A stretch of DNA of 64,000 bases from Acutalibacteraceae bacterium (GTDB taxonomy: Bacteria > Bacillota > Clostridia > Oscillospirales > Acutalibacteraceae): contig JAZNSL010000056.1 of NCBI GenBank assembly GCA_045591225.1, positions 19,123 to 83,122 of the forward strand, read 5' to 3'. This document shows, piece by piece, positions 31,724 to 53,523 of this stretch. Below the pieces are notes generated by a model that was not told the DNA's origin, made no database searches, and saw only the letters and a list, made by a program, of their open reading frames with translations. The position numbers and the translations under genes were made by a program. Positions within the stretch are counted from its first letter, which is position 1; every line of letters starts with the position of its first letter.

Positions 31724-32011
31724 ATGAATTATAAGGATTATATCAAAACTGAATTGCTTATACTAGTTCCGGTTTTGTATTTAATAGGTGTTGGTTTGAA
31801 GAGAAGCAAAGTGCCCGATAAGTGGATACCGGTTTTGTTGGGAGTTTCTTCTGTTGCACTATCTTCTGTGTGGGTTTTTGCAACTGTAGAAGTGTTTGGA
31901 GTACAGGAAATTGCATCTGCAATCTTTACGGCTGTAACGCAGGGCATTCTTGTGGCTGGAGCTAGTGTGTATGCTAATCAATTATATGTCCAGGCGAAGA
32001 AGGAGGAGTAA
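31724..32011 (+). CDS. phage holin
   Basis: 95 aa with 2-3 TM segments (LLILVPVLYLIGVGL, IPVLLGVSSVALSSVWVFA). It sits between the XhlA-like gene and the endolysin gene. Confidence 0.7.
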   Translation: MNYKDYIKTELLILVPVLYLIGVGLKRSKVPDKWIPVLLGVSSVALSSVWVFATVEVFGVQEIASAIFTAVTQGILVAGASVYANQLYVQAKKEE

Positions 32012-32014: not shown

Positions 32015-33097
32015 GTGGTGCCTATTATCAAAGCGCACGCAGTAAAAAATCTTTGTTACATAGTTGCACAGAAAATGGTTCCAACGGGAATTGTTGTTCA
32101 TTCTACCGGAGTAAATAATCCTTATTTGAAACGATATGTAGATGCTTCTGATGAAGTGGGAATTAACCGATATGGCAACCATTGGAACACTGCCATGCCG
32201 GGAGGTAAAAAGGTTTGTGTTCATGCATTTATTGGATATGATGATAATAATCAAGTACGTGTTGCTGAAATACTACCACTTGATATTTGTTGTTGGGGAG
32301 TAGGTAACGGAAATAAAGGTAGTTATAACTATAATCCAGCATATATCCAATTTGAGATTTGCGAGGACAAGCTTACCGACAAAACATATTACAACAAGGC
32401 CTTTGAAGTTGCAGCAGAGTATTGTGCCCTGCTTTGTCAAAAGTATAACATTGCGGTGGATAGAATTGTTGGTCATTGTGAAGCAGCTCAACTAGGGTAT
32501 GGTAGCAATCATGCGGACCCCGAGCACTGGATGAAGAATTTCGGGGAAACGATGATTGATTTTCGAAAAAAAGTTTCTAGTCTTTTAAGAAATAAAGATA
32601 GGGAAAGCGAAGGCGTTGAGGAATCAACCTCCAATCAAGTGATCATCCAAAAAGGAGATTTGGTTTCCATTGCGAGTAATGCTACTTACTATAATGGTGC
32701 TACAATTCCTTCTTGGGTGAAATCTCAAAATTGGTATGTGAAAAACAATCCTGTGAGTAATCGAGTAGTTATTGATAAGAATGAAAAAGGAACCAATTCT
32801 ATCTGTAGTCCGATAAATATTCAATTTCTCTCGGTCGTAAGGAAAGCAAACAGTTTTAAAGAAAAAGATGCAAGGAATGAACCCAATGCTCAAGAGTGTC
32901 CTTATTTAGTGAAGGTAACCACTTCGTTACTGGCAATTTTTCAAGATGCTGATGCTAAAAGTGTGCGTGTTGGTACAATTAGTGACCAAGGAGTATATAC
33001 TATCGTAGCGACTAAAATGGATGCACAGTCTGTTTTATGGGGAAAGCTTAAGTCCGGCGTTGGTTGGATTTTGTTGAATCAAACAAAGAAAATTTGA
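32015..33097 (+). CDS. endolysin: N-acetylmuramoyl-L-alanine amidase (Amidase_2/PGRP) with C-terminal binding repeats
   Basis: Has IVVHSTGVNNP and HCEAAQLGYGSNHADPEHW. The C-terminal half has two SH3-like repeats (GDLVSIASNATYYNG..., VGTISDQGVYTIV). Confidence 0.8.
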   Translation: MVPIIKAHAVKNLCYIVAQKMVPTGIVVHSTGVNNPYLKRYVDASDEVGINRYGNHWNTAMPGGKKVCVHAFIGYDDNNQVRVAEILPLDICCWGVGNGNKGSYNYNPAYIQFEICEDKLTDKTYYNKAFEVAAEYCALLCQKYNIAVDRIVGHCEAAQLGYGSNHADPEHWMKNFGETMIDFRKKVSSLLRNKDRESEGVEESTSNQVIIQKGDLVSIASNATYYNGATIPSWVKSQNWYVKNNPVSNRVVIDKNEKGTNSICSPINIQFLSVVRKANSFKEKDARNEPNAQECPYLVKVTTSLLAIFQDADAKSVRVGTISDQGVYTIVATKMDAQSVLWGKLKSGVGWILLNQTKKI

Positions 33098-33232
33098 TTT
33101 TACTGAGCGAAATATGTATATGATTATTCGTCTGCGTTGTGAAAGGGATTCTGTATTCTGCAAAAATAGATTTATTGCTTGTGATTCTCATAGAAAGTTA
33201 TTTTACGCACCGTGTTCTTGAGAATTTATAAT

Positions 33233-33270
33233 AAATCCCCCTACGGCAGATTGAACCGTAGGGGGATTTT
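33233..33270 (+). terminator. rho-independent terminator after lysis cassette
   Basis: aaatccccctacgg-cagattgaa-ccgtagggggattt plus a T-run. Confidence 0.8.
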
Positions 33271-33290
33271 GTGAGCGAACCTCTCTATTA

Positions 33291-33317
33291 CTTACAATAA
33301 CTATTTATTATTGTGAG
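33291..33317 (+). repeat. left inverted recombination-type site (IR-L)
   Basis: CTTACAATAA-ctattta-TTATTGTGAG: two 10-bp inverted arms around a 7-bp spacer. 24 nt (33290-33313) are a perfect inverted copy of 35181-35204. Confidence 0.8.
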
Positions 33318-33377
33318 GTTTAAATCAAAGGTAGTATGTAGTTTTTTGAAGATTTAATATGAGAGGAAATATAGGTA

Positions 33378-34463
33378 ATGAATGTTTTTATTAGTTGGTC
33401 TAAAGCAAAAAGTATGCAATATGCGCTCAAAACAAAGGCACTTTTAGAAAGTCTTGACCCTTCTATAAATGCATTTGTTTCAGAAGTAGACATACATGGT
33501 GGAGAAGATGTTCAAGAAAAAATAATACATAAAATTATCGAATGTGATAAGTTGGTTCTATGTTTCACTAAGGAAAACAAAAAATCTCCATGGTTGCTAT
33601 TTGAAGCGGGATATGCAAGAGGATTACGTAAAACTGTTATTCCAATTCTTTTTGACGATGATCCCAATTGGCATTCATGGGTCGATAATCCAATGAATAT
33701 AGCACGTGAAATTAATTTCAACGACAAAAATTTTTCTAATGTTTTCTTTGACTGCTTTGGAATTGTTAGTTCCGAGAAAAACAAACAAAAGTTACAAAGA
33801 TATAGGAAAACCATCCTTGATATTAAAGATAAATTTCGCCAAGTTGATATTCAGTGTGAGGATTTCGTAGATAAATTAACACATAATGAAACTTTTATTG
33901 TGGAAAATCCTTTTTATAGAGGCAGAACTGCATTTTTTCTGTCCGGATTTGAAAGCTTTGATCTATATAAAACGATAATCGAATCATTTATGTACACAGG
34001 AAAATATCTGTGGATATATGGGCGAAAAAACATGAAGTTATTTGGGGGAAGTTTCAACTCATTTTTTAAATATCTAGAAGAAAAGGCCTCTTTTGATGGG
34101 ATGGAAGGAATTGATTTTAGGTGTTTGTTCCTCGACCCCGATTCGCCTGAAGTTGAAAAGGCGCATCTTCAACAAGACATTTTCAAATCTGAATTAACTG
34201 CAACTATATTGCGAGCAAAGTCAGTGGTCCAAGACAATCTACAATTACAGAAATGTTTTAGATTATACTCCAATAAGCGAGAAGAAATCATTATTCGTCT
34301 TGATAATTGCATTATTTATGCCAGGCCCAATTTTGATGCAAATGGATATCCGCAATTATTAACTAATAGCGGATTTGAGGTTTTTAGTGTAAAATCCGAT
34401 AAAGGAAAAGAATGTATTAAGAAATATGAAAATGTATGGAATGCAGCAAAAAATATGTTTTAA
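33378..34463 (+). CDS. TIR-domain protein with uncharacterised ~230-aa C-terminal domain
   Basis: N-terminus VFISWSKAKS...DKLVLCFTKENKKSPWLLFEAGYARG shows the bacterial TIR pattern, including the conserved Glu in FEAG. Confidence 0.65.
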   Translation: MNVFISWSKAKSMQYALKTKALLESLDPSINAFVSEVDIHGGEDVQEKIIHKIIECDKLVLCFTKENKKSPWLLFEAGYARGLRKTVIPILFDDDPNWHSWVDNPMNIAREINFNDKNFSNVFFDCFGIVSSEKNKQKLQRYRKTILDIKDKFRQVDIQCEDFVDKLTHNETFIVENPFYRGRTAFFLSGFESFDLYKTIIESFMYTGKYLWIYGRKNMKLFGGSFNSFFKYLEEKASFDGMEGIDFRCLFLDPDSPEVEKAHLQQDIFKSELTATILRAKSVVQDNLQLQKCFRLYSNKREEIIIRLDNCIIYARPNFDANGYPQLLTNSGFEVFSVKSDKGKECIKKYENVWNAAKNMF

Positions 34464-35125
34464 CTTTTGGATATTAAACCTTTTATTCGTTGCATAATTT
34501 TAGAAATCGTTTCATCAACACTTAGTTCTGTTACATCGACATTGTTGAACAAGTACGGGAATTTTACTGAAAGTTTTTCAGTACTAGTATATAAGTCCAT
34601 ATTTGCTTTGTAGATGAATGGTATATGGTTAATCATATAGGATTCAGGATTCCTATTAAATAGCCGAGTGTAAAGTGCTTGCTCGCTGGTTACATATAAG
34701 TTAATGTATATCACATTGCGATTTTCTGCTAATCCATTGAGTGTTTCTGGAATAATATGAACACCATTGATTATCGAAGATATTCCTTTTCTCTTCTGTC
34801 TGTCTACTATGCTCTCAAAAGAAGAACGCATGAAATAACACTGTTGTTTCGCTTCTTCAAGACACAATAATTTTGTGTGATCGGTAATTTCTATTTGACT
34901 TAGGATATCATTACTTTGCGTCGGAAATTCCCGTTTTAAAAAAGAATTATATCCACGAAGAACCTCTCGAATAAGGTCTGTTTCTTCGATAATTCTAAAT
35001 TCATTAAATCTCTTCAGCAATTCGTATGAGATCGTAGTCTTTCCTACTCCCGGGACGCCAGAAATAAATATTATGAATCCGTCAGGAATTTCGATTTTTA
35101 TATTACTTAATTGGATTGCTTCCAT
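34460..35125 (-). CDS. P-loop kinase-like protein (AAA_33 / 2-phosphoglycerate-kinase-like)
   Basis: Walker A is IIFISGVPGVGKTTISYELL. It is convergent with the TIR gene and the stops overlap by 4 nt. Confidence 0.55.
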   Translation of the reverse strand: MEAIQLSNIKIEIPDGFIIFISGVPGVGKTTISYELLKRFNEFRIIEETDLIREVLRGYNSFLKREFPTQSNDILSQIEITDHTKLLCLEEAKQQCYFMRSSFESIVDRQKRKGISSIINGVHIIPETLNGLAENRNVIYINLYVTSEQALYTRLFNRNPESYMINHIPFIYKANMDLYTSTEKLSVKFPYLFNNVDVTELSVDETISKIMQRIKGLISKS

Positions 35126-35176
35126 AATTCTATACCTTAATCATTTGGAGCCGATATCGTAAATTTTATTTAAGAA

Positions 35177-35203
35177 CTTGCAATAATAAATAGTTATTGT
35201 AAG
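35177..35203 (-). repeat. right inverted recombination-type site (IR-R)
   Basis: The forward strand reads CTTGCAATAA-taaatag-TTATTGTAAG, which is the reverse complement of IR-L except at 3 positions in one arm. Confidence 0.8.
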
Positions 35204-35217
35204 TTTTGACTTTTCCA

Positions 35218-35246
35218 ATTATAGCGTACTTTGATAAAATAATCAA
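35218..35246 (-). promoter_or_regulatory. near-consensus sigma-A promoter outside IR-R, firing into the cassette
   Basis: The minus strand reads TTGATT (35246-35241), a 17-nt spacer, then TATAAT (35223-35218). It lies 14 nt upstream of IR-R. Confidence 0.6.
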
Positions 35247-35272
35247 TAACTTATCGAAATACGAGGTGCAAA

Positions 35273-36187
35273 ATGAAAGAAAAAAATTTACTTGTTGAGG
35301 AATTCCTTGGTGTAGTCGAATCCACCAAAAACTTATCTGAGAATACAATGGTTGCTTATCGTTCGGATTTAATGGATTTTATGAGCTCGGTTGATATGAA
35401 CGCTTTGTACGACAATACGATACTGACCTATGTTCAAACTCTATCGCAGGAAAGAGGTCTAAAGGTTAGTACTATCAACAGAAAATTAGTCGTTTTAAAA
35501 ATGTTATTTGAATATGCTTATGAGCATAATTATTGTGACAAGAACTATTTTTTGTCGCATAGTTTTAAACTTAAAAAAGGAAAAAGATTACCTAAGACCT
35601 TAGCACTTTGTGAAACAAGGAAACTCTTATTATTTCTAACTGACAGATGTAAAAATGCAGAAAGCGATTTCGACCTGTGGAAAGCAACTCGGGATTTGGC
35701 GTTGATTGACATACTAATAAGTACTGGTATACGAATTGCAGAAGCATCAAATATGGCATTGACAGATATTATACCATCTGAACATACAATTCTAATTCAT
35801 GGGAAAGGTCAAAAGCAACGATTGATATATATTTCCTGCTCTGAGACATGGACAAATTTGTTGAAGTGGATTAAGATGAGAAAAAAGTATTCAACAGATA
35901 CCAGTAAAGTTTTTGTGAATCGTCATGGAAAGCAATTAAGCATACATGGAATTGAGTATATATACAACAATCTTAAATCTCAAACAGGTATTAACCCAAA
36001 ATCTACTCCCCATTATTTGCGGCATACTTTTGCAACAAATCTTTTGGCAAATGGTGCTGATTTGCGATCAGTTCAAGAAATATTAGGTCATAGTAGTGTT
36101 TCAACTACAGAAATATATACGGAGGTTACTGGCCAAAGGAAAAAGCAAGTATTGAAAAAATATAATTATCGTAACCGCTTAGTGTAA
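35273..36187 (+). CDS. Xer-like tyrosine recombinase
   Basis: 304 aa. Has ATRDLALIDILISTGIRIAE (Arg I), HYLRHTFATNLL (H-x-x-R) and LGHSSVSTTEIYT (catalytic Tyr). Confidence 0.85.
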   Translation: MKEKNLLVEEFLGVVESTKNLSENTMVAYRSDLMDFMSSVDMNALYDNTILTYVQTLSQERGLKVSTINRKLVVLKMLFEYAYEHNYCDKNYFLSHSFKLKKGKRLPKTLALCETRKLLLFLTDRCKNAESDFDLWKATRDLALIDILISTGIRIAEASNMALTDIIPSEHTILIHGKGQKQRLIYISCSETWTNLLKWIKMRKKYSTDTSKVFVNRHGKQLSIHGIEYIYNNLKSQTGINPKSTPHYLRHTFATNLLANGADLRSVQEILGHSSVSTTEIYTEVTGQRKKQVLKKYNYRNRLV

Positions 36188-36233
36188 TTTTGGTGATCGA
36201 AAATAGTTTTTTCACTGGATAAGTTGTATATAG

Positions 36234-36280
36234 CAAAACCTCCTATGGTAGTTTGGGTTCTACCATAGGAGGTTTTGTTG
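36234..36280. terminator. bidirectional terminator
   Basis: An 18-bp stem caaaacctcctatggtag/ctaccataggaggttttg lies between convergent genes. Confidence 0.75.
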
Positions 36281-36317
36281 ATATATGCGAATGCTTAAAG
36301 AAGCGTGAGCGCTTTTC

Positions 36318-37649
36318 TTACTCAAAATACGGACGAATAAATTCCATCGTAATATCTTCCACTTGTTGAGCTAAGTTTTCAGACACACCACAATAATTGG
36401 CCCCTATGGCAGCAGTGTTGGGGTCCGTTTCGTATAGCATGCCATAAATCATTACAGCACCGCAGTATCCAGCTAATGGTTTAGAGTGAAGCACTCCATC
36501 GTAGTAGATTAACTCGCCTTCGGGTACGCCAGCATCGAGAAGTGCGTAAATGACATCTCGCCAAAATGCCAGTTTCACGTTAGTGTTTCGATAGGCCAAA
36601 GCAGGGTTGGGACCTGTTTCGTTGTGGGCGGGGAATAACACTAATTCAGTTCCGGAGGTGCTGCAAGCGTTCTCCAAGACAGAGAGGTTGCCGGCATCCT
36701 CGGGAGTATAAGCACCGTTGATAAACAGAATGTCATAGTCACCGCCACACAACATATCCAGTTTTTTCGCATCGTGTGCAAAGTCTGTGATAGTGATATT
36801 GGGGAACCAATGCTCATCTACAATAGCATCCTTATGATTGGCCTTCAATATCTGTCGCAGTTGCTGTACCACATCAGAATAACCGATAAAACTGTTGCCT
36901 GCTATGGCAATACGCAGATTCTTTTTGTTGCGGGAGTCCAGCCGGTTGTTTCTCTCTAACAACTGGAAAGATTTCAGCGATTCCAAACAAGCCGCCAAAT
37001 CGTTCGCACTAATATAATCGGCAGAGATCTCTAGCATATAAAAAAACGACTCATTTGTCATCGTATAACTGCTGTAAGTCAATGCGGTGTCAGTACCTGC
37101 TGTGTAGCAGAAAGTCTGTACGGAAAAATCACCAACTTCGGTTTTGCCTACTACATCGTTGGGGACGATATCGGCGAATATAAAATTGGGAATTAATCGT
37201 CCAATTCGTACTTTGTTGCAATAGATGACGGCGTACGATCGGGAACCGTTTTCCTCAATTTGCATGGTCATGTTTTTGGGCAACTGCATTCGAATCCGTT
37301 TCTGTGCGTAGTCGAAGGATAGAGAAATATCCTTCATTGTAGCTTTATCGGGCGCTTTCAACGTTGCATTGTGAACAGGGAAGAAGAGGTCGGCGGCGGT
37401 GTAGGAGTTGGTTGTTTGGGCAGTTGTAGTAGACTTGACTGCTTGCGTCGTTTCAGAGCAAAACGAAGTGGTTAAGCCCTCGCTTGTGGTGTTAGGGCGT
37501 TTGGTGGTTAATTTAGTAGTGTTCTGGCTAGTAAGCGTGGTAGCATTTATGATGGAATCAATACTACTACTGTTTTGTACGTCATTGCATCCAATTAAGA
37601 GAAAACAAGAGCAAAGGAAAATGCATATTATACATTTGATGTGTTTCAT
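36318..37649 (-). CDS. lipoprotein with possible SGNH-like C-terminal domain
   Basis: Start MKHIKCIICIFLCSCFLLIGCNDV carries a lipobox (LIGC) and has RBS GGGAGGG. A Thr/Ser-rich linker follows. The C-terminal segment LRIAIAGNSF... supports the hydrolase call only weakly. Confidence 0.55.
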   Translation of the reverse strand: MKHIKCIICIFLCSCFLLIGCNDVQNSSSIDSIINATTLTSQNTTKLTTKRPNTTSEGLTTSFCSETTQAVKSTTTAQTTNSYTAADLFFPVHNATLKAPDKATMKDISLSFDYAQKRIRMQLPKNMTMQIEENGSRSYAVIYCNKVRIGRLIPNFIFADIVPNDVVGKTEVGDFSVQTFCYTAGTDTALTYSSYTMTNESFFYMLEISADYISANDLAACLESLKSFQLLERNNRLDSRNKKNLRIAIAGNSFIGYSDVVQQLRQILKANHKDAIVDEHWFPNITITDFAHDAKKLDMLCGGDYDILFINGAYTPEDAGNLSVLENACSTSGTELVLFPAHNETGPNPALAYRNTNVKLAFWRDVIYALLDAGVPEGELIYYDGVLHSKPLAGYCGAVMIYGMLYETDPNTAAIGANYCGVSENLAQQVEDITMEFIRPYFE

Positions 37650-37973: not shown

Positions 37974-38321
37974 ATGGGAACTGCCGAACGAAGAACCGAA
38001 ATAATGCGTATTCTCTGTAGAAGACGTCACGAAACTGTCGCAAATTTGGCGATTGAGTTCGGCGTTTCCACGAGAACCATTCAACGCGATATAGAAGCAC
38101 TTAGTCTAACAGAGCCTATTTATACTCAGTGTGGGCGATACGATGGAGGAGTTTATGTGGACGAAGACTATGTTATGGATCGCATGTATATGAACAACGC
38201 TGAACTTGAAGTGTTACATAAATTGTCTTCTTTTGCTGAAAGAAAATCGGTTTGTAACTTGGATAAATCAGAAGTGGTTATCCTACAGCGAATGATAGCT
38301 CAGTACACAAAACCTAGATGA
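37974..38321 (+). CDS. HTH (DeoR/HTH_11-type) transcriptional regulator
   Basis: Reads TAERRTEIMRILCRRRHETVANLAIEFGVSTRTIQRDIEAL. Confidence 0.7.
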   Translation: MGTAERRTEIMRILCRRRHETVANLAIEFGVSTRTIQRDIEALSLTEPIYTQCGRYDGGVYVDEDYVMDRMYMNNAELEVLHKLSSFAERKSVCNLDKSEVVILQRMIAQYTKPR

Positions 38322-38339
38322 GAAAAGGAGTAAATAACG

Positions 38340-39407
38340 ATGAAACAAGAAGAAAAAGAATTGTTTAAAAATTTGTGCAGTTTCAAGGCGAAAGATTTTA
38401 ATGAAAACTTACTATCGTATTCAACGCCGGCCGTCTTAGGGCATTTATTTTTTAATCGAATGCAGGCGGTAGCATATGGAGTGCTATTGGAACATGGACT
38501 GTTAGGTAAAGTCAATCGTGAATTTCGCAATTCCGTAAAATCAGCTTACACAAATAACATAGAGAAAAATGATAGCTTTTTTCATTGCGTTCAATATTTG
38601 GAACAAGTGCTGTCTGCATGTGGTTGTAAATACGCTATGTTGAAAGGTGCGTATCTGTGTAAATTGTATCCTAAAGGATATCGAACATCTAACGATATTG
38701 ATTTGTTAGTACTTCCGCAGGATGTTACGATTATTGGTAACACGCTGATTCGGGCTGGATTTAAACAGGGAAACATTCGCAATGGAAAGTTTGAACAGGC
38801 AACACGCAAAGAGATCATTGAGTCTAAAATGATGCGAGGGGAAACGGTTCCCTTTATCAAGGAAGTAAATTTACCAGGATTAACCTATCTGGAAGTTGAT
38901 ATCAATTTTTCTCTTGATTACAAACCAGGAGATACAGAATTGTTGGTAGAAATGCTCGATAATGTGGTGGTGGAAGAATTGCCTGGTTATATGGTACATA
39001 CTCTGCGGCGAGATGACTTCTTTGTGCATTTGTGTTGTCATCTGTATAAAGAAGCTTCCACATTACCTTGGGTAGATATGATGCGCGACATGACGCTCTA
39101 CAAATATAGTGATATCTATATGCTTTTGAATGACGAATCGAAAGAAAACATCAACTATCTGATGTCGCGAGCCAAAGAGCTTGGTGTGGAAAAAATATGC
39201 GCTTTTGCTGTGCTTCAAACATCGGAATTGTTCAACTTTAAAAATGAATATGCGGTTAAAGTAGCAAGAGAGATTCTTGTTGATAACGTTGATTTTATCC
39301 ACACAGTCGTTTCGCCGAAAGATAAAAAAACATATCAATTCTCTAATAAAAATATAATGGATCGCTTTTTTGCTGATAGCAGAAAAGAGCTGTTGCAGGA
39401 GGTGTGA
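38340..39407 (+). CDS. nucleotidyltransferase-family protein (NTP_transf_5-like)
   Basis: LKGAYLCKLYPKGYRTSNDIDLLV is paralogous in pattern to the chromosomal 61746..62903 (LKGSVLRPYYPEAWMRTSCDTDILI). Confidence 0.55.
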   Translation: MKQEEKELFKNLCSFKAKDFNENLLSYSTPAVLGHLFFNRMQAVAYGVLLEHGLLGKVNREFRNSVKSAYTNNIEKNDSFFHCVQYLEQVLSACGCKYAMLKGAYLCKLYPKGYRTSNDIDLLVLPQDVTIIGNTLIRAGFKQGNIRNGKFEQATRKEIIESKMMRGETVPFIKEVNLPGLTYLEVDINFSLDYKPGDTELLVEMLDNVVVEELPGYMVHTLRRDDFFVHLCCHLYKEASTLPWVDMMRDMTLYKYSDIYMLLNDESKENINYLMSRAKELGVEKICAFAVLQTSELFNFKNEYAVKVAREILVDNVDFIHTVVSPKDKKTYQFSNKNIMDRFFADSRKELLQEV

Positions 39408-39411
39408 TTAA

Positions 39412-40053
39412 TTGAAAGAACTTAAGATGCGTCCAAACAATACCCCAGGATATTTGATCACATTCTGTGGATTGGATGGTTGCGGGAAAACGACTATGTT
39501 GACAAAATTGATTGAGGACTTGGAAAAACGATATCAGGTGTTTCTTACTAAACAGCCTACTAATGCTGTTCGTCAATCAGAGATTTTTCGCACATATATG
39601 GATAAGCCTGATCATGATCAATATGATTATAGAAGTTTATCTTTGCTTGCAGCTAGCGATAGACTACAACATGTTAATAAGGTGATTGAGCCGGAGATGT
39701 CGTTAGGGAAGATCGTTGTTAGTGATCGATATTTTTATTCTTGTTTGGCTAATCTGTACGCTCGAGGTTTTGTACAAGATGATTGGATCTATGAAATCGC
39801 AGAATCGATAGTTAAACCAGATGTGGCTTTTTTCTTTGATGTGCCGGTAGAAACAGCTGTAGCACGAGTCCGTAGCCGCCCGGCGGAGAAAGATCGCTAC
39901 ATTGATATGGAATTGCAGTATCGTTTGCGTGAGGCGTACCGTACTATTTGTGAGTTGAATAATGGTGTTCTTGTTTCGACAGAGATGCCTATTGAGAAAT
40001 GTTATGCCCTTGTTAAAAAGGAAGTAGAGAGGGTGATGAGAGATGCAGATTGA
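39412..40053 (+). CDS. thymidylate-kinase-like nucleotide kinase
   Basis: Has ITFCGLDGCGKTT (P-loop), TKQPT, LLAASDR and SDRYFYSCLA. A TTG start fits RBS aggaggtg; the alternative is ATG at 39427. Confidence 0.7.
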   Translation: MKELKMRPNNTPGYLITFCGLDGCGKTTMLTKLIEDLEKRYQVFLTKQPTNAVRQSEIFRTYMDKPDHDQYDYRSLSLLAASDRLQHVNKVIEPEMSLGKIVVSDRYFYSCLANLYARGFVQDDWIYEIAESIVKPDVAFFFDVPVETAVARVRSRPAEKDRYIDMELQYRLREAYRTICELNNGVLVSTEMPIEKCYALVKKEVERVMRDAD

Positions 40054-40280: not shown

Positions 40281-41300
40281 ATGAAGAAAAAGGCCGAGCT
40301 GCCTCTCGTAGATCCGTTGTTTAGCACCTATCATTCTTTGGGACCTTGCACTGCAATTGCTGCAAATAATCCAAGTATCAGAAATTGGTATCTTAATGAG
40401 ACGGCGACTTTGATGTGCAGTCGTAAATTTTTAAATGGATTTACATCTCCAGAGATTTTCATTCCGTATGCCGCCTGGTGGGATTGTCCACATTTTGAAG
40501 TTTTAGAGCTTTCCTCGCAATTTTTAAAGGGGTATACGAGCTATGTTATACGAGAGATGATTGATCAGGGCTATTATGTGTTGTTTAGCAATGTGGATGA
40601 TTATTACGTAAAAGGTAAAAGTTGGTATAAAGAGCACCATTTCAGTCACGATGGAATGATTTGTGGTTATGATCAAGAAAAGAAATCATACTGCATATAC
40701 GCTTATGATAGTCGGTGGATCTATCAAAAGTTTTGGACGTCGCAGAAGTCTTTTAACGCTGGCTGCAGAGCGATGATTCGGCAAGGCGTTTTCCCGATAT
40801 TCTACGCATTAAAAGTAAATGATGAAAAAATTGAGTTGATGCCACATGTTATGTGCAATAACCTAAAGAAATACCTTGATTCAAATCTGGAAAAGTATCC
40901 GTTCGGAGGTGATGGGGATGTTTTCGGTATCGTTGTTCATCTTTATATTGCTGAATATGTTGACAAACTTTATAAAGGTGAGATCCCATACGAACGTATG
41001 GATAGACGCGTTTTCCGTGCGATTTGGGAGCATAAAAAGGTTATGTTGGAACGGATAAAAGCTATTGAAAAAACTCTTTGTTTAGGCCGTCAAATTAGTA
41101 GCAAATACGCCGATCTTGTTTCTGAATCGGATACGATGAGGATGCTGTATGCTTCTCATAACAAAAAAAGACGAGATTCTGTTTTGCTTCTAATTAAGAA
41201 GAAGTTACTTCAAATTATGGAAGACGAGCGAGATTTGTTAAATGAATTGATTGTGGAAATGGAAAGGAGCTTTGCAAATGGAATTGTGGGGATATCTTAG
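40281..41300 (+). CDS. BtrH-like / papain-fold putative carrier-protein-dependent acyltransferase
   Basis: Has an N-terminal Cys (LGPCTAIAAN) and HFSHDGMICGYDQEKKSYCIYAYD, resembling the BtrH_N/peptidase C39-like pattern. Recognition is by eye only. Confidence 0.4.
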   Translation: MKKKAELPLVDPLFSTYHSLGPCTAIAANNPSIRNWYLNETATLMCSRKFLNGFTSPEIFIPYAAWWDCPHFEVLELSSQFLKGYTSYVIREMIDQGYYVLFSNVDDYYVKGKSWYKEHHFSHDGMICGYDQEKKSYCIYAYDSRWIYQKFWTSQKSFNAGCRAMIRQGVFPIFYALKVNDEKIELMPHVMCNNLKKYLDSNLEKYPFGGDGDVFGIVVHLYIAEYVDKLYKGEIPYERMDRRVFRAIWEHKKVMLERIKAIEKTLCLGRQISSKYADLVSESDTMRMLYASHNKKRRDSVLLLIKKKLLQIMEDERDLLNELIVEMERSFANGIVGIS

Positions 41301-42654
41301 AAACCAGATGGATAAGCACAAAGAACAGGTGATCTGTGAAGAAGAGAATGTCATAACTTTTGAGAAGGCAAAAGAATTAGTGGAAGAGTTTGCCAAAAAA
41401 CTGGTAGGAATAAAATGCTGTGCAATTTTATGTGATTCGGAAATGGCTGCTGGTTTAGCTCTCTTAAGTTGTTTTGCTGCTGGAGTAACAGCGTTACCTC
41501 TATCTAAAAGATATGGAACTATGCATTGTCAAAAAATTATAGATGCTATCGATCCGGATGCTGTGATAACAGATACAGACAACGAATTAAACGTACATTC
41601 TAGAGAGAATGCTTCCTTTAAATTGCCTGAAAAGCATCCTGCTTTAATAATGTGTACTTCGGGAACCACCGGTACTCCCAAAGGGGCGATGCTGACAGAA
41701 GAGAATGTTCTGACTAATGTAGCGGATATCGCAAGATATTTTCAAATGGATGTGTCGGACACTATACTCATTGCACGTCCGCTATACCACTGTGCTGTCC
41801 TAACCGGTGAGTTTTTAACAGCGCTTGTGAAGGGCGTTAGGATTCGATTTTACTCAGGTTCTTTTAATCCGTCCCAAGTCCTGGCGCTAGTAAAGAAGCA
41901 TAGCATTACCACTTTTTGTGGAACCCCCACATTGTTGAGTATGATGTCACGGTTGAAGCGCGATTCACAAGACAATTTAAAGCACATTTGCATTAGCGGA
42001 GAATGTATGAGCTTTGAAACAGGAACAGCTATTGCCGATGCATTTCCACAGACAGATATTTATCATATCTATGGGCTTACAGAAGCGTGCCCCCGCGTTT
42101 CATACTTGCCGCCGTATTTGTTTCGAAAATATGCGGATTGCGTTGGTGTGCCCTTGAACAATGTGTCGTTGAAAGTGATCACTGACCGCGGAACGTTGGC
42201 ACAACCTAATGAAATCGGTATCCTTTGGGTGAAGGGGGGCAATGTAATGGCCGGATATTACAATAACCCTGAAAAAACATCGGAGGTCTTGAAAGATGGA
42301 TGGTTGTGCACGGGGGATCGAGCGCTCATTAATGAGGTGGGACTTTTGAAGATTAAAGGCAGAAATGACGATTTGATCATAAAGGCCGGCATGAATATAT
42401 ATCCCCAAGAGATTGAAGGTGTTCTGAAAACAGATCCGCGTGTAAGGGAATTGTTTGTGTGTGGTAAGCACGATGACAAATTAGGTGTGCAGATTATTTT
42501 AAATGTTGTGGGCGATTTTTCTGACACCAGTGAGGTAAAAGAATTATGTCGTAACCTTTTACCCTCCTATCAAATTCCAAACAAAATCTATCTGGTGGAT
42601 GAATTGCCTAAAAATGGATCCGGTAAAATTGTTAGGAGGGCTCCGTGTGTTTGA
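41278..42654 (+). CDS. AMP-dependent adenylate-forming enzyme
   Basis: Has IMCTSGTTGTPKGAM, YGLTEA, GDRALINEVGLLKIKGRNDD and LPKNGSGKI. RBS aaaggag precedes ATG 41278. Confidence 0.8.
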   Translation: MELWGYLRNQMDKHKEQVICEEENVITFEKAKELVEEFAKKLVGIKCCAILCDSEMAAGLALLSCFAAGVTALPLSKRYGTMHCQKIIDAIDPDAVITDTDNELNVHSRENASFKLPEKHPALIMCTSGTTGTPKGAMLTEENVLTNVADIARYFQMDVSDTILIARPLYHCAVLTGEFLTALVKGVRIRFYSGSFNPSQVLALVKKHSITTFCGTPTLLSMMSRLKRDSQDNLKHICISGECMSFETGTAIADAFPQTDIYHIYGLTEACPRVSYLPPYLFRKYADCVGVPLNNVSLKVITDRGTLAQPNEIGILWVKGGNVMAGYYNNPEKTSEVLKDGWLCTGDRALINEVGLLKIKGRNDDLIIKAGMNIYPQEIEGVLKTDPRVRELFVCGKHDDKLGVQIILNVVGDFSDTSEVKELCRNLLPSYQIPNKIYLVDELPKNGSGKIVRRAPCV

Positions 42655-43222
42655 ATACGAAAAGAAGATTATGCTGACAGAAGGAGAATATAACGCGATA
42701 TTAACTGTTTTCGGAAGTGGTGTCGACACAATCTTTCAAACCAATTACTACTTCGATACAGAAGATCTTTCAATGGATGCACATGATGTAACATGTAGAA
42801 TTCGAGGAAAAGATGGCAAATATAAAACTACTATCAAGCATCATAACTCCGGAGAGGTAGAGCGAAGTGTCGAAGAATATATATGTGAAAGTTTTACTTT
42901 TGATCCGTCACCCTTTAAGGTCCTCGGGCTGCAGTATCAAGGGGAATTGTCCACGGAAAGGAAAATGCTGTGTCGCTGTAAGCAGTATCAAGTAATGCTG
43001 GACAAAAATACATTTTTAGGCTGTGTGGATTATGAGCTGGAGGTTGAATATCTTCCCGGATATAGTCGAAAAGCGTTGAATTATATTTGTAACATTGGGA
43101 TGACTTTAGCAGAAACCGGTCTCTTAAACCATGCTGATGATTTGATGAAACGTATTGGGCAAGGACAAACGAAATCTAAGCGCTTTTTTGAAAAATTAAA
43201 AAACACTAAGAAAAAAGTTTAA
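42647..43222 (+). CDS. CYTH-domain (triphosphate tunnel metalloenzyme) protein
   Basis: A GTG start lies 6 nt after RBS aggaggg. The N-terminal FEYEKKIML fits the ExExK signature of CYTH. Confidence 0.55.
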   Translation: MFEYEKKIMLTEGEYNAILTVFGSGVDTIFQTNYYFDTEDLSMDAHDVTCRIRGKDGKYKTTIKHHNSGEVERSVEEYICESFTFDPSPFKVLGLQYQGELSTERKMLCRCKQYQVMLDKNTFLGCVDYELEVEYLPGYSRKALNYICNIGMTLAETGLLNHADDLMKRIGQGQTKSKRFFEKLKNTKKKV

Positions 43223-48528: not shown

Positions 48529-51500
48529 ATGGAAAATGAAATTGTAAAAGATATTGCTAATGAACCTACGAACCTTGAGCAGACAACTATGTGTGTTGGT
48601 GAATCTGCTTTTTTTCACAATCCGATGGGTGATGAAACCACCGTTGATAATGAGACAACTTGGAGCAGTGACAATCCAGCTGTCGCGACTGTTAATGAAG
48701 TAAGTGGTCTTGTTTATGCGCAGCAAGAAGGCGAAACGGTTATTCGAGCAAATGGCGCAGGTCAGAGTTACGCGGTTACTGTGACTAATCGTGTGCTTGT
48801 AGAGGATATCATTTTAAGTGACACACATCTTGAACTCAATAGGGGAGATAGACGGGGTCTTAGCGCCACAATTTGTCCTTCGAATGCATCAAACAAAGGG
48901 ATTCGATGGTATAGCGGTAATGAGAATGTTGTTGTCGTTCATTCGTCTACGGGTTGCGTAACAGCCAAAAACGCCGGCAGAACTTACGTGTATGCTACTG
49001 CAAAAGACGAAAGCGGAATTCGATCTTGCTGTGAAGTTGTTGTGAAACAGACTGTCCCCAATAATGCTGAAGAAACTCCTGACAACAAAGTGCCGAATAG
49101 TACATTCGCAGACCCAGTTGATGTGTTTAGTGGAGCGCATTTGCTGAAAAATACTGTAATGACTTTGTTCGGCGGTCAAAGCGTACAGCTGATTGCTCAT
49201 TATAATTCCACTTATCTTGCGTGTGGAGTGTTCGGTTCTGGCTGGTATCACAATTTTGAAAAGCGAATTGTAATTGATGGCTCTGACGCGTTTGTTTATA
49301 ACAATCCTTCTATTTTCTCGCATTATATTGCAGAAAATGAGCAATGCACAACTTTTGTTTGTAACAGTGCAAATAAAAACGGGTATGTGCTCACTGTTGA
49401 TTATGCCAGTCAGTATCCGTATGTTGTCAATTGCAATTTTGCGAGAACTGAATACTATAACACTGAGGGTAATCTTGCAAAAATTGTTGATCATCAAGGG
49501 CATGAAATTACGATTGAGTATGCAGAGCTTCAAGTTGCGATTACTGATGGGGTATCCGGCAAAAAGATTTATCTAGATAAAGATGCGAATGGTAAGGTTG
49601 TTTGTGTACGTGATGATGCAGATAGATCCGCAACGATGACATATAACGGTAATCTGCTTTCTTCTATCAGTGATGTGAATGGTAACACCCTGACCTTTGT
49701 CTATGACGAAGAGGGCAGAGTGAAGAAGGGTTATGATTCCAAGGGCATTTGCTATTTTGAAAATACATACGATGAATACGGTCGTGTGATTCAGCAAAAA
49801 GATGCTATTCCCGGCTCTGCAAAGTCGGTGTTTGTTTACGATGATAATCTTCGAGTCACTACTGACCGAAATGGTAAACAGAGCGTCCGTGAATATGATG
49901 GCAATGGGCTTCTGATTCGTTATACCGATGAGAATGGTAATATCATCACCTACGAGTACGACGAACATTGTAATGTTGTCAAAGAGACTGATGCTATTGG
50001 AAATTCTGTAACGAAAGTATACAATGATTTTAACAAGCCTACTGAAATTACGGATAAAAACGGTAACAAGACTTGCTTCACCTATGATGCCAATGGTAAC
50101 GTGACAAAGATTCAGTATCCTGCAATTAATGGCCTGGTACCTGAGGAGACTTTCGTTTATAATAGTTGCAATCAGCTGATTCAACACTCTGACATTCGAG
50201 GGACTGTAACTACCTATACCTATGACGCCAATGGGATGCCGAAAACTAAGAAAGTGGGCAGTAAGAATGCGATTGTTTATTCTTATGAGGATGGTCTGCT
50301 AAAATCTCAGACCGACGCCATGGGTAACACGACAAGATATACTCACAACGCTATTGGACAGGTAAGCACTGTTACTGCTGCAGATAACAAAGTAACGCAA
50401 TATGTCTATGATAACTATGGAAATCTGCTTCGTTTGATCGATGCTGACGGAAACACTGTGACTACTGTCTATGATGGCAACTATCAAAAGGTTTCTGTGA
50501 CCGATGCTAATGGAAACACAACTGAATATTCTTACAATGGCAATATGAAGAACGATGTTGTTATGCTACCTGATGGTCATGTTATTCGATACGAGTTTGA
50601 TGGCGAGGATAGAGTTGTCAAGATTACCGATCAAGCAAATAATGTTACTGATATTACCTATGACAATGGGGGGAGAGTGGTCTCTAAACGGTTTGCCGAC
50701 GGCGCGCTCGTTCAGTATGAGTATGATGCAGTTGGCAACGTGGTAAAAGAAACGAACCCTAAGGGTGCCGTTACTGTTAAGACTTATGATAACCTCGGTA
50801 ACATTTTGAGTGTCACTGATGCTGAAGGTAATGTGACCACCTATGAGTACAATGCTATGTCGAAGGTTGTGAGGAGCGTAAATGCAAAAGCTGGTGCTAC
50901 CGTATATGTCTATTCCAAGTCCGGTGACCTTCTCTCTGAGACGGATGCCATGGGCCACACCAAAACCTATACTTACGATGCGTATGGCAACCGACTCACG
51001 ATGACGGATGCACGGAATTATACGACCACTTATACCTACGATCAGAACAACAATTTGCTCACGGTCAAGGATCCGCTGAATCACGTTACCACCTATACCT
51101 ACAACTGCCTCAATCAGTGTGTGTCTGTTAAGGATGCTCTGAACAATACGATTCAGTATGGCTACGATGCTCTCGGCAGACGAACGACCATTACTGATGC
51201 CCGTGGCAATGTGTTTACGACCACCTATGATGGCAACGGTAACGTTATCAAGACCACCGATGCTAAGGGGAATATCGTCAGTGAAACGGTGTACAACTGT
51301 TTGAACTTGCCTCTTACTGTTACCGATGCGATGGGCAAGGTAACCACCTACACCTACAATGCACTCGGCAAAGTGGAGAGTGTCACTGACTCTATGCATC
51401 ATCGTCAGGAATATTCGTACAATTCCCGTGGTCAGAACACTGCTGTTCTGGATTCGGCAAACAATACCAGCACGGCTACTTATGACCTGCTTGGTAATGT

Positions 51501-53523
51501 GATTCGTCTCGCGGGACCTCTCGGTGGTGCTACCAATTATACCTACGATAATATGGGGCGTCTCGTATCTGAGTCCACCGTTTCTGGTGGTACCAAGAAC
51601 TACGAATACAATGAGTTGAATATCCGCAAGAAGATCACTAACGCACGGGGGCAGATCCGCCAGGTATTCCATGATGCCATGGGTCGAATCACCGGCTATA
51701 CTTCTCCCGAAGGTGCGGTGAGTTATACTTATGATGCCAACGGCAACGTGTTGACGGTGACGGATAGCCACGGCACGATTACGAGAACTTATGATGCTTT
51801 GAATCGTATTGCAAGTTATACCGATACCTATGGTAAAATGATTCGGTATGAGTATGACGCAGTGGGGAACCTGTCCAAGCTAATTTATCCCGATAATACG
51901 GCAGTAACCTATGCGTATGATGCTAACCATAATTTGATTCGGGTTACTGACTGGGCGAATCGAGTGACTGCTTATACCTACGACGCGAATAATCGAATCG
52001 TTGAAGTGACCAAGCCGGATGGTAGCGTAACTACTACTACCTATGACAATATGCAGCGTGTCACCTCTACGGTAGTAAGAGCAATGTCCGGTGCTGTTAT
52101 TGCCGGATTTGAGTACACCTATGACAATCTGTCGAGAATTGTGGAAGAAAAACATCTTGCAGATGGTGTTAAATTGTGCTATATTTATGATAACCTGAGT
52201 CGTGTGATCAAGCGTACCGTGAAGTGCCTGGAGAGCAACACGGTGTTGTCTGAGGAAACCTTCACCTACGATGCGGCAGGTAACATCACCGATGCACCCG
52301 ACAGTTGTTTCCAGTATGACACCAACAACCGACTGGTAGTGTTTAATGGCCATGCAGTAACCTACGACCTTGACGGCAATATGCTGAATGATGGTGAGCG
52401 GAACTTTAGTTACGATTCGGCTAACCGACTGGTAACCGCCGACAGTCATACGTACACCTACAACGCCGAGGATATGCGCATCCGCAATTGTTGCGAGAGT
52501 GGTGAGGACACGACTTATACCCATGATGCCAGTGTAAAACTTAGCAGATTGCTCTGCAAGACTACCAACGGTGTTGTTACCAAGTATGTCTATGGACGTG
52601 GACTCATCGGTGAGGAGGTAAGCGGCACATTTAAGACTTACCACTGCGATTGCAGAGGCAGCACCATTGCAATCACCGATGCAAGCGGAAGTATCACCGA
52701 TACCTTTGCATACGATACCTATGGAAAGATGATTGAGCATTGTGGCAATAGTGCGGTTATTTTCGGCTACAACGGCCGGGATGGTGTCGTGACGGATGAT
52801 AACGGGCTGATCTATATGCGTGCCCGGTATTACAGCCCCGATATGAAGCGATTCATCAATGCGGATATTGTTGCCGGCGAGATCTCCAACGCCATCACCC
52901 TCAACCGCTTCTCCTACGCCAACGGCAACCCGGTTTCCTTCGTGGATCCGTTTGGACTGAGTGCAGAGAGGGGCAGTGTAGATTTGTCAACTGTGTTGTC
53001 TGCAGATGACTTGAAAAAACTTAAACAGCTCTATGATTTAACCTCTCTTGAGCTAGATGCTTTTGATATAAGCCTACAAGTATTGCACTCTTCTCTCAAA
53101 GATGGCCTTAATAAGGCTGTTCGACCAAACAATATCCCTAAAGGTGTGTGGCAGAAGCAAATAGACGCTGATTTGAAATGGTTAGATGATATTCTTGGAC
53201 CAGCATCTAAACTTTCAAAGACGCTTGATACAGTATCTATGCCATTGATTGATGCAACTATGGTTTTTGTTGATGCAGGGATTGGATATTATGAAAATAT
53301 TCAAAATAATGAATCTTCACAGGAAGTATATACCGACCTTGCAATAGATCTAGGGGTAGGTGCAACTACTGCTGGTCTCTCTTTTATAGTTACTTCGGCG
53401 ATTACAGGATCTGCTTTTGGTACAGCCTGTCCGGTCGTAGGAAATGTCTTAGGTTTTCTTGTGGGTCTGGCGATAGGCGTTGGAGGATATTATTTAGGTC
53501 AGGCACTGGATGACGCAATGTAA
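48529..53523 (+). CDS. RHS/YD-repeat polymorphic toxin with N-terminal Big_2 domains and glycine-zipper C-terminal toxin domain
   Basis: 1664 aa. Two Ig-like Big_2 units come first (SSDNPAVATVNE.., GIRWYSGNENVVVV). Then FADPVDVFSGAH and dozens of YD repeats (YTYDANGN, YEYDAVGN...). The core ends ..YANGNPVSFVDPFGL (52945-52959). The following 187-aa tail ends in a Gly/Ala-rich hydrophobic segment. Confidence 0.9.
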   Translation: MENEIVKDIANEPTNLEQTTMCVGESAFFHNPMGDETTVDNETTWSSDNPAVATVNEVSGLVYAQQEGETVIRANGAGQSYAVTVTNRVLVEDIILSDTHLELNRGDRRGLSATICPSNASNKGIRWYSGNENVVVVHSSTGCVTAKNAGRTYVYATAKDESGIRSCCEVVVKQTVPNNAEETPDNKVPNSTFADPVDVFSGAHLLKNTVMTLFGGQSVQLIAHYNSTYLACGVFGSGWYHNFEKRIVIDGSDAFVYNNPSIFSHYIAENEQCTTFVCNSANKNGYVLTVDYASQYPYVVNCNFARTEYYNTEGNLAKIVDHQGHEITIEYAELQVAITDGVSGKKIYLDKDANGKVVCVRDDADRSATMTYNGNLLSSISDVNGNTLTFVYDEEGRVKKGYDSKGICYFENTYDEYGRVIQQKDAIPGSAKSVFVYDDNLRVTTDRNGKQSVREYDGNGLLIRYTDENGNIITYEYDEHCNVVKETDAIGNSVTKVYNDFNKPTEITDKNGNKTCFTYDANGNVTKIQYPAINGLVPEETFVYNSCNQLIQHSDIRGTVTTYTYDANGMPKTKKVGSKNAIVYSYEDGLLKSQTDAMGNTTRYTHNAIGQVSTVTAADNKVTQYVYDNYGNLLRLIDADGNTVTTVYDGNYQKVSVTDANGNTTEYSYNGNMKNDVVMLPDGHVIRYEFDGEDRVVKITDQANNVTDITYDNGGRVVSKRFADGALVQYEYDAVGNVVKETNPKGAVTVKTYDNLGNILSVTDAEGNVTTYEYNAMSKVVRSVNAKAGATVYVYSKSGDLLSETDAMGHTKTYTYDAYGNRLTMTDARNYTTTYTYDQNNNLLTVKDPLNHVTTYTYNCLNQCVSVKDALNNTIQYGYDALGRRTTITDARGNVFTTTYDGNGNVIKTTDAKGNIVSETVYNCLNLPLTVTDAMGKVTTYTYNALGKVESVTDSMHHRQEYSYNSRGQNTAVLDSANNTSTATYDLLGNVIRLAGPLGGATNYTYDNMGRLVSESTVSGGTKNYEYNELNIRKKITNARGQIRQVFHDAMGRITGYTSPEGAVSYTYDANGNVLTVTDSHGTITRTYDALNRIASYTDTYGKMIRYEYDAVGNLSKLIYPDNTAVTYAYDANHNLIRVTDWANRVTAYTYDANNRIVEVTKPDGSVTTTTYDNMQRVTSTVVRAMSGAVIAGFEYTYDNLSRIVEEKHLADGVKLCYIYDNLSRVIKRTVKCLESNTVLSEETFTYDAAGNITDAPDSCFQYDTNNRLVVFNGHAVTYDLDGNMLNDGERNFSYDSANRLVTADSHTYTYNAEDMRIRNCCESGEDTTYTHDASVKLSRLLCKTTNGVVTKYVYGRGLIGEEVSGTFKTYHCDCRGSTIAITDASGSITDTFAYDTYGKMIEHCGNSAVIFGYNGRDGVVTDDNGLIYMRARYYSPDMKRFINADIVAGEISNAITLNRFSYANGNPVSFVDPFGLSAERGSVDLSTVLSADDLKKLKQLYDLTSLELDAFDISLQVLHSSLKDGLNKAVRPNNIPKGVWQKQIDADLKWLDDILGPASKLSKTLDTVSMPLIDATMVFVDAGIGYYENIQNNESSQEVYTDLAIDLGVGATTAGLSFIVTSAITGSAFGTACPVVGNVLGFLVGLAIGVGGYYLGQALDDAM

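Follow-up and report, generated by a model that had tools for sequence, protein, structure and literature searches.

A candidate inversion switch in gut Clostridia predicted to place either a TIR gene or a P-loop kinase gene behind one fixed promoter

The 64-kb stretch of contig JAZNSL010000056.1 analyzed here (the window), from an Acutalibacteraceae bacterium, contains a gene for a TIR-domain protein and a gene for a P-loop kinase that lie tail to tail between two opposed recombination sites, beside a gene for a Xer-like tyrosine recombinase. We read this arrangement as a site-specific flip cassette, that is, a programmed inversion switch, and put the chance that this reading is right at about three in four. 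In the proposed mechanism, the recombinase would recombine the two inverted 27-bp sites and flip a 1.9-kb segment holding two promoterless genes, transcription would enter the segment from one side only, from a fixed promoter at 35246-35218, and a hairpin terminator at 33233-33269 would close the far side of the cassette. The promoter-proximal gene would be expressed, and its transcript should continue antisense through the other gene, because the two open reading frames (ORFs) overlap at their 3' ends. As sequenced, the window would have the kinase-like gene ON and the TIR gene OFF, and inversion would reverse these states.

A convergent gene pair between two opposed recombination sites

The left site (33291-33317, plus strand) reads CTTACAATAA-CTATTTA-TTATTGTGAG and is composed of two inverted arms around an asymmetric 7-bp center. 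The right site (35177-35203), which is the reverse complement of CTTGCAATAA-TAAATAG-TTATTGTAAG, is opposed to the left one, its minus strand reading CTTACAATAA-CTATTTA-TTATTGCAAG; the spacers of both 27-bp sites are asymmetric and opposite in direction. Together, positions 33290-33313 and 35181-35204 form a 24-bp perfect inverted repeat, with 83% identity when stretched to 40 nt. The repeat and both sites had been proposed in a first-pass annotation of the window, and their coordinates, arms, and spacers were verified here. Matches to the degenerate site pattern occur at 2 places in the 64 kb, where about 0.12 would be expected, and this count was reached in none of 100 shuffles; the window sites are not due to chance. 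The left site differs at 1 of 27 bases from the site of the equivalent segment (seg1) in four related assemblies, L055 to L058, which reads CTTACAATAA-CTATTTA-TTATTGTAAG, and its clade-level consensus is aCTTACAATAA-N7-TTATTGtAAG.

The sole long ORFs between the sites are the TIR gene (33378-34463, plus strand; 361 amino acids, with an N-terminal TIR domain and a C-terminal PLD-like domain), which lies on the terminator side and is predicted OFF, and the P-loop kinase gene (34460-35125, minus strand; 221 amino acids, of the 2-phosphoglycerate kinase type), which faces the predicted promoter and is predicted ON. Both appear promoterless. As the first pass had described, the two genes converge, with starts 60 nt (TIR) and 51 nt (kinase) inside the 27-mers; their 3' ends overlap by 4 nt.

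The presumed invertase, a Xer-like tyrosine recombinase of 304 amino acids, is encoded on the plus strand at 35273-36187 and begins 69 nt past the right site, where a recombinase of this kind had been predicted. It matches Pfam Phage_integrase (E = 2.5e-35) and has a SAM-like N-terminal domain (Phage_int_SAM_1, 7.7e-10). The catalytic R, K, HxxR, H, and Y are intact and all align with those of Escherichia coli XerD (1a0p), in the motifs GIRIAE, GKGQKQR, HYLRHT, LGHSS, and EIYTE, which we take to correspond to XerD R148, K172, H244/R247, H270, and Y279. Judged by its sequence, with this catalytic set and a two-domain architecture, the protein is a tyrosine recombinase of the lambda-Int/Xer type.

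Homologues of the cassette proteins fall into 312 clusters for the TIR protein and 532 for the kinase, nearly all from gut metagenomes and Clostridia. A scan with one genome per species gave 27 loci, with hosts in the Acutalibacteraceae, Oscillospiraceae, Lachnospiraceae, Ruminococcus, Petralouisia, and Erysipelotrichales, and the module is common in Clostridia of the human and animal gut, including Blautia wexlerae. At all loci with both ends readable, the TIR and kinase genes are convergent and are flanked by inverted sites with the core xxATAA-N7-TTATxx. The recombinases form two clades. Those of clade A are 59 to 67% identical to the window's, with sites of the form CTTACAATAA-N7-TTATTGTAAG and the 5' end of the gene toward the cassette; those of clade B are about 30% identical to the window's, with sites GGATAA-N7-TTATCC and, mostly, the 3' end of the gene toward the cassette. 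Across 25 loci examined, the recombinase is the sole conserved neighbor of the cassette, the exceptions being two decayed Blautia copies and two loci without an assignable recombinase. This co-occurrence, and the fact that the two site types track the two recombinase clades, are hints from which we infer that the adjacent recombinase is the invertase of the cassette.

The segment occurs in both orientations among relatives

The first pass had predicted inversion and had proposed to look for homologous loci in both orientations; such pairs were found at the L055 to L058, Blautia-type, and P0007 loci. L055 to L058 are four assemblies of one locus with 99.7 to 100% flank identity and a TIR protein 90% identical to the window's, and the TIR/kinase segment lies one way in L055 and is reversed in L056, L057, and L058. 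At the Blautia wexlerae-type locus, an exact inversion of 1829 bp lies between 22-bp repeats, within 4.3-kb flanks that are approximately 99.9% identical, and eight assemblies divide evenly between orientation A (L012, L013, L008, and L011) and orientation B (L010, L014, L015, and L017). One flank single-nucleotide polymorphism at this locus occurs in all four combinations with orientation, which suggests repeated flipping. At the P0007 locus, whose TIR protein shares 87% identity with that of the window, the identical flank is found at both cassette ends of contigs L050 and L051, and the junctions of L052 and L053 are inverted relative to those of L048 and L049. Because L050 and L051 carry both junction types and the perfect repeat is only 25 nt, under assembly k, both orientations coexist within samples.

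Further signs of flipping come from contig ends and from more distant comparisons. L047, a k = 31 contig, consists of the cassette bounded by a 26-nt perfect terminal repeat, as expected because an assembly graph branches when both orientations are present, and the longest contig is of cassette size (1.8 to 2.0 kb) in 33 of 120 TIR clusters among the matches listed. Compared with L018, which has a cassette of 91% identity, the window has its cassette flipped relative to the recombinase, with breakpoints at the sites. The sites themselves vary in a telling manner: 22 loci have 21 distinct central 7-mers, all of them asymmetric and each identical between partner sites, as is characteristic of a crossover region where strand exchange demands matching sequences. 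The features of a programmed inversion, namely inverted sites with an identical asymmetric crossover and both orientations at one locus, were thus found, the latter in relatives, and we consider it very likely that the segment inverts. An assembly artifact was rejected, as the locus is present in a complete genome and repeats of 22 to 26 nt are far shorter than the assembly k-mers. Terminal repeats of a transposon were likewise rejected, as the recombinase lies outside the repeats and the segment flips in place.

A predicted promoter on one side and a terminator on the other

The predicted fixed promoter, TTGATT-17-TATAAT (35246-35218, minus strand), reads into the cassette and is called from a consensus match with comparative support. 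It is overlapped by a putative divergent promoter for the recombinase gene, TTTCCA-17-TAAAAT with an upstream TG (35212-35240, plus strand), called from a consensus match only. Outside the left site, the hairpin terminator at 33233-33269 has a 14-bp perfect stem and ends the upstream endolysin gene; its folding energy is -26 kcal/mol (z = -4.6), UUUUGUG follows the stem, and a scan for hairpins with T-runs was positive on both strands. Because a T-rich run follows on the reverse strand as well, the terminator probably also stops transcripts leaving the cassette. Both the promoter hexamers and the strong hairpin had been picked out in the first pass and are present. An Rfam scan of 32900-36500 gave no meaningful match.

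Comparison across relatives suggests that many of them share this one-sided layout. The median leader between site and start codon is 45 nt long for either gene (range, 9 to 119), and at L045 the 56-nt repeats take in the ribosome-binding site and the first codons, with the start codon approximately 14 to 19 nt inside the site; because the leaders are so short, most cassette genes cannot hold a promoter of their own. Within clade A, the window, L002, L018, and L033 share a consensus-like inward promoter at a fixed distance on the recombinase side, an arrangement that recurs next to each of the two flip segments in L055/L056. In the clade-A cassettes of the window, L018, L019, and L043, the far side ends in a hairpin terminator, and a terminator lies on the side opposite the promoter in these and in L012, L048, and L055. 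The Blautia locus has an extended -10 element (TGTTATAAT) just outside the recombinase-side site and two terminators on the other side. The layout is mirrored at L022, L030, L039, L026, and L048, with the terminator on the recombinase side and, at the opposite end, a promoter or a gene reading into the cassette. The mean score of the best inward promoter over 23 loci is 9.63 against 8.44 +/- 0.18 in shuffled sequence, and the mean left-right asymmetry of promoter strength is 2.57 against 1.32 +/- 0.22, each value being reached in 0 of 500 shuffles. Inward and outward promoter strengths differ modestly (p = 0.035), partly because clade A carries the divergent recombinase promoter in the same place. 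Among reference loci, the TIR gene or the kinase gene is next to the promoter about equally often.

From these comparisons we infer that the inward promoter is active, and either/or expression of the two genes from this one promoter is probable. The first-pass picture of a switch under one external promoter holds as far as the short leaders, the one-sided promoter, and the often opposite terminator are concerned, but a few relatives are possibly fed from both sides.

The clade-A loci L019 and L043 are without the usual promoter in the gap between recombinase and site. In both, the gap has a long inverted repeat (CTCCTCGAAATT...AATTTCGAGGAG) overlapping the ribosome-binding site of the recombinase gene, which may represent a different regulatory arrangement.

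The TIR protein and the kinase

The TIR protein matches Pfam TIR_2 (E = 3.7e-10) and the PADLOC profile TIR-TM (E = 2.7e-14), with weak matches to ThsB-like profiles. The FEAG context of the catalytic Glu, noted in the first pass, is present, and this residue (Glu76) does not vary among close homologues and reaches at least 90% conservation among distant ones. With a TIR fold and a conserved catalytic-type Glu, the protein is by sequence a TIR-domain protein with a putative NADase or signaling activity. Exact-sequence look-ups of the window TIR and kinase proteins returned no record.

A Pfam search with the C-terminal 210 residues of the TIR protein gave no match. The model of this domain has a mean predicted local-distance difference test score (pLDDT) of 58.7 from a shallow alignment and 93.9 from a deep one, and the top Foldseek matches to it all belong to the PLD superfamily, although they are weak (best E = 2.6e-3, TM-score 0.41 to 0.54); they include Nuc (1byr; probability 1.00, E = 2.6e-3), the nuclease domains of SauUSI and NgoAVII, and phospholipases D. 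The catalytic HxK(x)4D motif of PLD/Nuc proteins was not found, and no His is conserved in the domain across the family. Conserved instead are GRKN.K, the L, F, and P positions of DFRCLFLDP (a motif complete only in the family consensus), Y...R, and a D. Because the family is without a conserved HxK, a binding or sensor role for this modeled domain seems likelier than catalysis.

The PLD-like domain family comprises about 128 clusters at 50% identity and has no Pfam model. The domain is also joined to other heads, namely a GT4-conflict glycosyltransferase, a PNP_UDP_1 phosphorylase, and a calcineurin-like phosphoesterase (metallophosphatase), in proteins P0259, P0283, P0288, P0296, and P0309; apparent head swapping of this sort is a pattern typical of conflict systems. 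Kinship of this family with a DUF4062 protein found at one relative was rejected on comparison.

The window kinase matches Pfam AAA_18, and its best NCBIfam match is PRK04220, 2-phosphoglycerate kinase (E = 2.2e-22 over residues 16-218; 79.8 bits against a cut-off of 343). It is nearest to 2-phosphoglycerate kinase and mevalonate-3-phosphate 5-kinase, with scores under the family cut-offs, and on this profile evidence it is a distant member or a sister family of PRK04220/COG2074. The Walker A sequence GVPGVGKTT and ETD..RE are invariant in the kinase family. Catalytic motifs are thus invariant in both the TIR and the kinase families, which indicates that both cassette genes are maintained.

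Two relatives tie the kinase to TIR-like proteins. At L045, protein P0264 (589 amino acids) is a natural fusion of TIR domain, C-terminal domain, and kinase, whose kinase portion shares 53% identity with the window kinase; it faces a second TIR protein (370 amino acids) inside a flip cassette at 4960-9530. This cassette is adjoined by a gene for a PNP_UDP_1 + STALD protein, a type known to sense TIR signals, that reads inward from the far side, a Thoeris-like link. At L055, the kinase gene sits in an operon 3' of the gene for the DUF4062 protein. The fusion and the operon suggest that the kinase is functionally tied to TIR-like proteins, and the two cassette genes are probably not unrelated. 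Because the kinase is fused to the TIR and C-terminal domains or follows DUF4062 in relatives, we would place it in the same nucleotide-centered pathway.

A plausible role for the cassette, as part of mobile islands in gut Clostridia, is that of a phase-variable module for conflict or for defense against phages. A population might in this manner hedge between a costly TIR protein, consuming nicotinamide adenine dinucleotide (NAD) or signaling, with a PLD-like sensor, and a 2-phosphoglycerate-kinase-like enzyme.

Weighing the inversion switch against other explanations

Several observations weigh against the inversion switch as set out above. Promoter hexamers are not enriched in the AT-rich window stretch by itself (14 against 15.8 expected), so the call of the inward promoter leans on the relatives rather than on the window. 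A weak TTGTGA-18-TACAAT match spans the left site, and the conserved sequence on the recombinase side is ambiguous, because the recombinase's own divergent promoter lies in the same stretch. At L025, L031, L034, and L045, the recombinase gene stops at or near the site and the other flank also reads inward or has a promoter, and in these clade-B relatives both genes might be fed from two sides. The fusion of TIR, C-terminal domain, and kinase indicates that the activities can cooperate, which is awkward for strictly alternate expression. For the window's own locus, orientation heterogeneity is hinted at only by the end of Logan contig L001, which encodes the identical recombinase and has its first base precisely where the perfect repeat has its inner edge, at 35181; an exact search of Joint Genome Institute (JGI) metagenomes for the window's junction on the recombinase side found none.

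The same fusion, together with the operon of DUF4062 protein and kinase, points to an extended form of the switch, in which the cassette would alternate between two mutually exclusive arms of a single nucleotide-based immune pathway. The kinase would then chemically complete, reset, or counteract the products of TIR-type enzymes, and the two orientations would correspond to an armed state and a safe or counter-defense state. The Xer-like enzyme, which in L055/L056 also flips a second segment, may in addition be a general platform for flipping several cassettes on mobile elements of gut Clostridia. We regard this proposal as rather doubtful.

A rather unlikely alternative is that the segment inverts but that expression does not depend on its orientation, owing to weak promoters at the sites or leaders or to transcription from both flanks, so that inversion would, for example, tune the ratio of TIR protein to kinase or the expression of the recombinase, or would be nearly neutral. 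The TTGTGA-18-TACAAT match across the left site would fit such a view, as would the flanks that both read inward at L025, L031, and L045, and perhaps L034, and the apparent cooperation of TIR-like proteins and kinases in the fusion and the DUF4062-kinase operon. However, the leaders are mostly too short to hold a promoter and a Shine-Dalgarno leader, promoter strength is one-sided with terminators opposite, and, with a 3' overlap and no terminator between the genes, simultaneous convergent transcription would collide. The conservation of sites and recombinase across families also argues that orientation matters.

We think it improbable that the repeats mark the termini of a mobile gene cassette, integron-like or IMEX-like, which the recombinase takes up or inserts either way, with the two orientations representing independent insertions. 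Near-identical cassettes do occur with different recombinase clades or site types (the GGATAA-type sites of L047 and the nested site of L043), and the module is present in many genomic contexts, yet inverted sites cannot excise a segment and the recombinase lies outside the repeats. Flips are seen at one locus between near-identical flanks and within single samples, the four-gamete pattern at the Blautia-type locus points to repeated flipping, and no cassette-free flanks were seen among the fetched loci.

An ordinary XerC/XerD or a prophage integrase with att sites beside a chance or fossil inverted repeat is hardly credible, even though the best NCBIfam matches of the recombinase are XerC (216.5 bits, cut-off 335) and XerD (203.9 bits, cut-off 329.6) and a holin-endolysin pair lies immediately upstream, since these scores are far under the cut-offs for the housekeeping proteins of dimer resolution at dif, the gene accompanies the cassette across unrelated contexts, the TIR protein is without a match in phage, viral-contig, or plasmid sets, and the nonrandom sites, the centers that co-vary and match between partner sites in 22 loci, and the observed flips contradict it.

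Modularity and variants of the flip cassette

In L055 and L056, two independent flip segments lie after a single recombinase gene; their sites share the same arms and differ in the center, which indicates that the flip design is modular. In the first segment (seg1, center CTATTTA), the TIR gene is opposite the genes for the DUF4062 protein and the kinase. In the second (seg2, center CAATGAA; L055 4906-11086 and L056 858-7892), a gene for a pentapeptide-repeat protein (479 amino acids) is opposite a gene for a radical-SAM protein (663 amino acids) and a 58-amino-acid ORF. Three of the four possible seg1/seg2 states were seen, and both segments have a predicted promoter flanking one end and a terminator flanking the other.

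At L043, a clade-B-type site (GGATAA-TATCTAA-TTATC; 5923-5980) is nested just inside the clade-A site, and the ends of L047, whose TIR protein is 92% identical to the window's, bear the same clade-B-type core. Cassettes seem, from these site sequences, to have moved between the two recombinase systems. Other copies are decayed: a Transposase_mut insertion sequence lies inside the Blautia cassettes of L008 (6858-9592) and L011 (6193-7434), and L009 and L016 have lost the recombinase or have a truncated kinase gene, presumably persisting as orientation-locked remnants. L021 (NZ_JBHULB010000053.1), a 1828-nt contig in an isolate assembly of 'Croceitalea marina' (Flavobacteriia), is a Clostridia-type cassette alone, bounded by 17-nt terminal repeats, and is probably a contaminant.

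Genomic context of the window

A perfect 18-bp hairpin at 36234-36277, 3' of the recombinase gene and before a convergent gene of 466 amino acids, is a likely terminator at the end of the module. Genes for a holin (31724-32011) and an amidase endolysin (32015-33097) lie directly upstream of the cassette, and the same element includes a replication O-like gene (30612), a resolvase gene (25833), a ParB-like gene (19119), and a methyltransferase gene (16345). None of the window ORFs tested was identified as a structural phage gene, and the element may be cryptic or phage-plasmid-like. Searches with the TIR protein gave no match in IMG/VR viral contigs, phage records, or plasmids, and a DNA search of the region against phage records returned short matches to the recombinase only. 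Given the lack of TIR matches there, and despite the holin-endolysin pair, the module does not appear to be typically phage- or plasmid-borne. In other genomes the cassette is found in conjugative-element-like or chromosomal contexts, in many settings.

Beside the recombinase, at 37974-40053, are genes for an HTH_11 regulator, an NTP_transf_5 nucleotidyltransferase with weak similarity to AbiEii, and a thymidylate-kinase-like protein that matches PADLOC VakA (1e-14) and PDC-M51B (4e-14). This operon is a candidate defense system and would make the region a small defense island. Downstream of it, an AMP-binding enzyme (467 amino acids) and then a CYTH-domain protein are encoded at 41251-43222. 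Farther along, the gene at 48529-53523 is followed by small ORFs and encodes a probable polymorphic toxin, an RHS-repeat protein of 1664 amino acids that carries Big_2 and DUF6531 domains.

Significance and comparison with known systems

TIR enzymes have a central place in anti-phage immunity, and effectors of abortive infection come at a cost. A DNA switch that pairs TIR-off with kinase-on would, if true, be a new population-level regulation of such immunity, and a flip platform on mobile elements would constitute a class of whole-gene inverton missed by existing surveys. Cassettes flipped at intergenic repeats approximately 1.9 kb apart probably fall outside common inverton searches, which are aimed at small invertible promoters and intragenic repeats, and further such cassettes may exist, the second segment of L055/L056 being one example. 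The cassette also splits metagenome assemblies, resulting in stand-alone contigs of about 1.9 kb. Finally, the pairing is a handle on two uncharacterized families, the PLD-like domain and the 2-phosphoglycerate-kinase-like kinase. In the literature searched, we came upon no account of a flip cassette with TIR and kinase genes, nor of TIR genes subject to phase variation. The first pass had remarked that a whole-ORF switch between a TIR protein and a kinase is not known to be described; the principle of swapping whole genes behind one fixed promoter by a Xer-like enzyme has a precedent in the Vpma/Xer1 system (PMC2268961).

Among immune systems, Thoeris is the natural comparison for the TIR protein. 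In Thoeris, one operon encodes a ThsB-type TIR protein and a ThsA-type effector, the latter combining a SLOG-type sensor with a SIR2, TM, or Macro domain. The window protein resembles Thoeris and other TIR anti-phage systems in its conserved catalytic-type Glu, its weak ThsB-like matches, and the PNP_UDP_1 + STALD neighbor at L045; it differs in its PLD-like C-terminal domain, its predicted phase variation, and its pairing with a kinase. Canonical Thoeris was rejected, with no ThsA-type or SLOG effector within approximately 5 kb of the window cassette.

The layout recalls the invertible segments of two phages. The G segment of phage Mu (Gin) and the C segment of P1 (Cin) hold convergent alternative gene sets behind one fixed outside promoter, with an adjacent invertase gene. 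The invertase there is a serine recombinase acting with an enhancer and Fis, and the genes are paralogous tail fiber genes whose constant 5' part lies outside the segment. The window cassette shares the invertible convergent pair and, as predicted here, the outside promoter, whereas its recombinase is of the tyrosine type and its genes are not paralogous.

Tyrosine recombinases also invert DNA at short inverted repeats and generate ON/OFF heterogeneity in E. coli fimS, Clostridioides difficile RecV, and Bacteroides invertons (PMC5914908, PMC6083910). In those systems the promoter flips within a small segment and the genes are fixed, whereas here the genes would flip and the promoter would be fixed; an invertible-promoter inverton of the fimS type was rejected for the window, as two ORFs with short leaders take up the segment and the promoter candidate lies outside it. 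In hsdS invertons, a tyrosine recombinase beside a phase-variable defense locus of host-associated Firmicutes likewise creates heterogeneity by inversion (PMC7672463, PMC4948785; surveyed in PMC9881135). The hsdS repeats lie inside paralogous coding sequences and shuffle specificity domains, whereas the repeats here are intergenic and whole, unrelated genes are swapped, for which reason surveys of gene-altering inversions would miss the cassette; the words 'TIR' and 'toll' do not occur in the survey (PMC9881135).

The closest known mechanism is the Vpma/Xer1 system of Mycoplasma agalactiae, in which sites in 5' untranslated leaders, one unique promoter, and an adjacent Xer-like recombinase support reversible inversions, with transcription limited to the gene that lies behind that promoter (PMC2268961). 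As in that system, and in M. bovis Vsp and M. pulmonis Vsa/HvsR, whole genes would be swapped behind one promoter by an adjacent Xer-like recombinase, and, as in the Vpma and Mu G arrangements, the cassette genes appear promoterless with the site in the 5' leader, in leaders as short as 9 to 22 nt. The alternatives in Mycoplasma are several paralogous surface lipoprotein genes that serve antigenic variation, whereas the cassette holds two non-homologous cytoplasmic enzymes, a TIR protein with a PLD-like domain and a 2-phosphoglycerate-kinase-like P-loop protein, encoded tail to tail in one segment on mobile islands of Clostridia. As far as tested, the sites and recombinase are not close relatives of those of Vpma/Xer1. 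The novelty of the cassette is thus in its cargo and host range and not in its principle.

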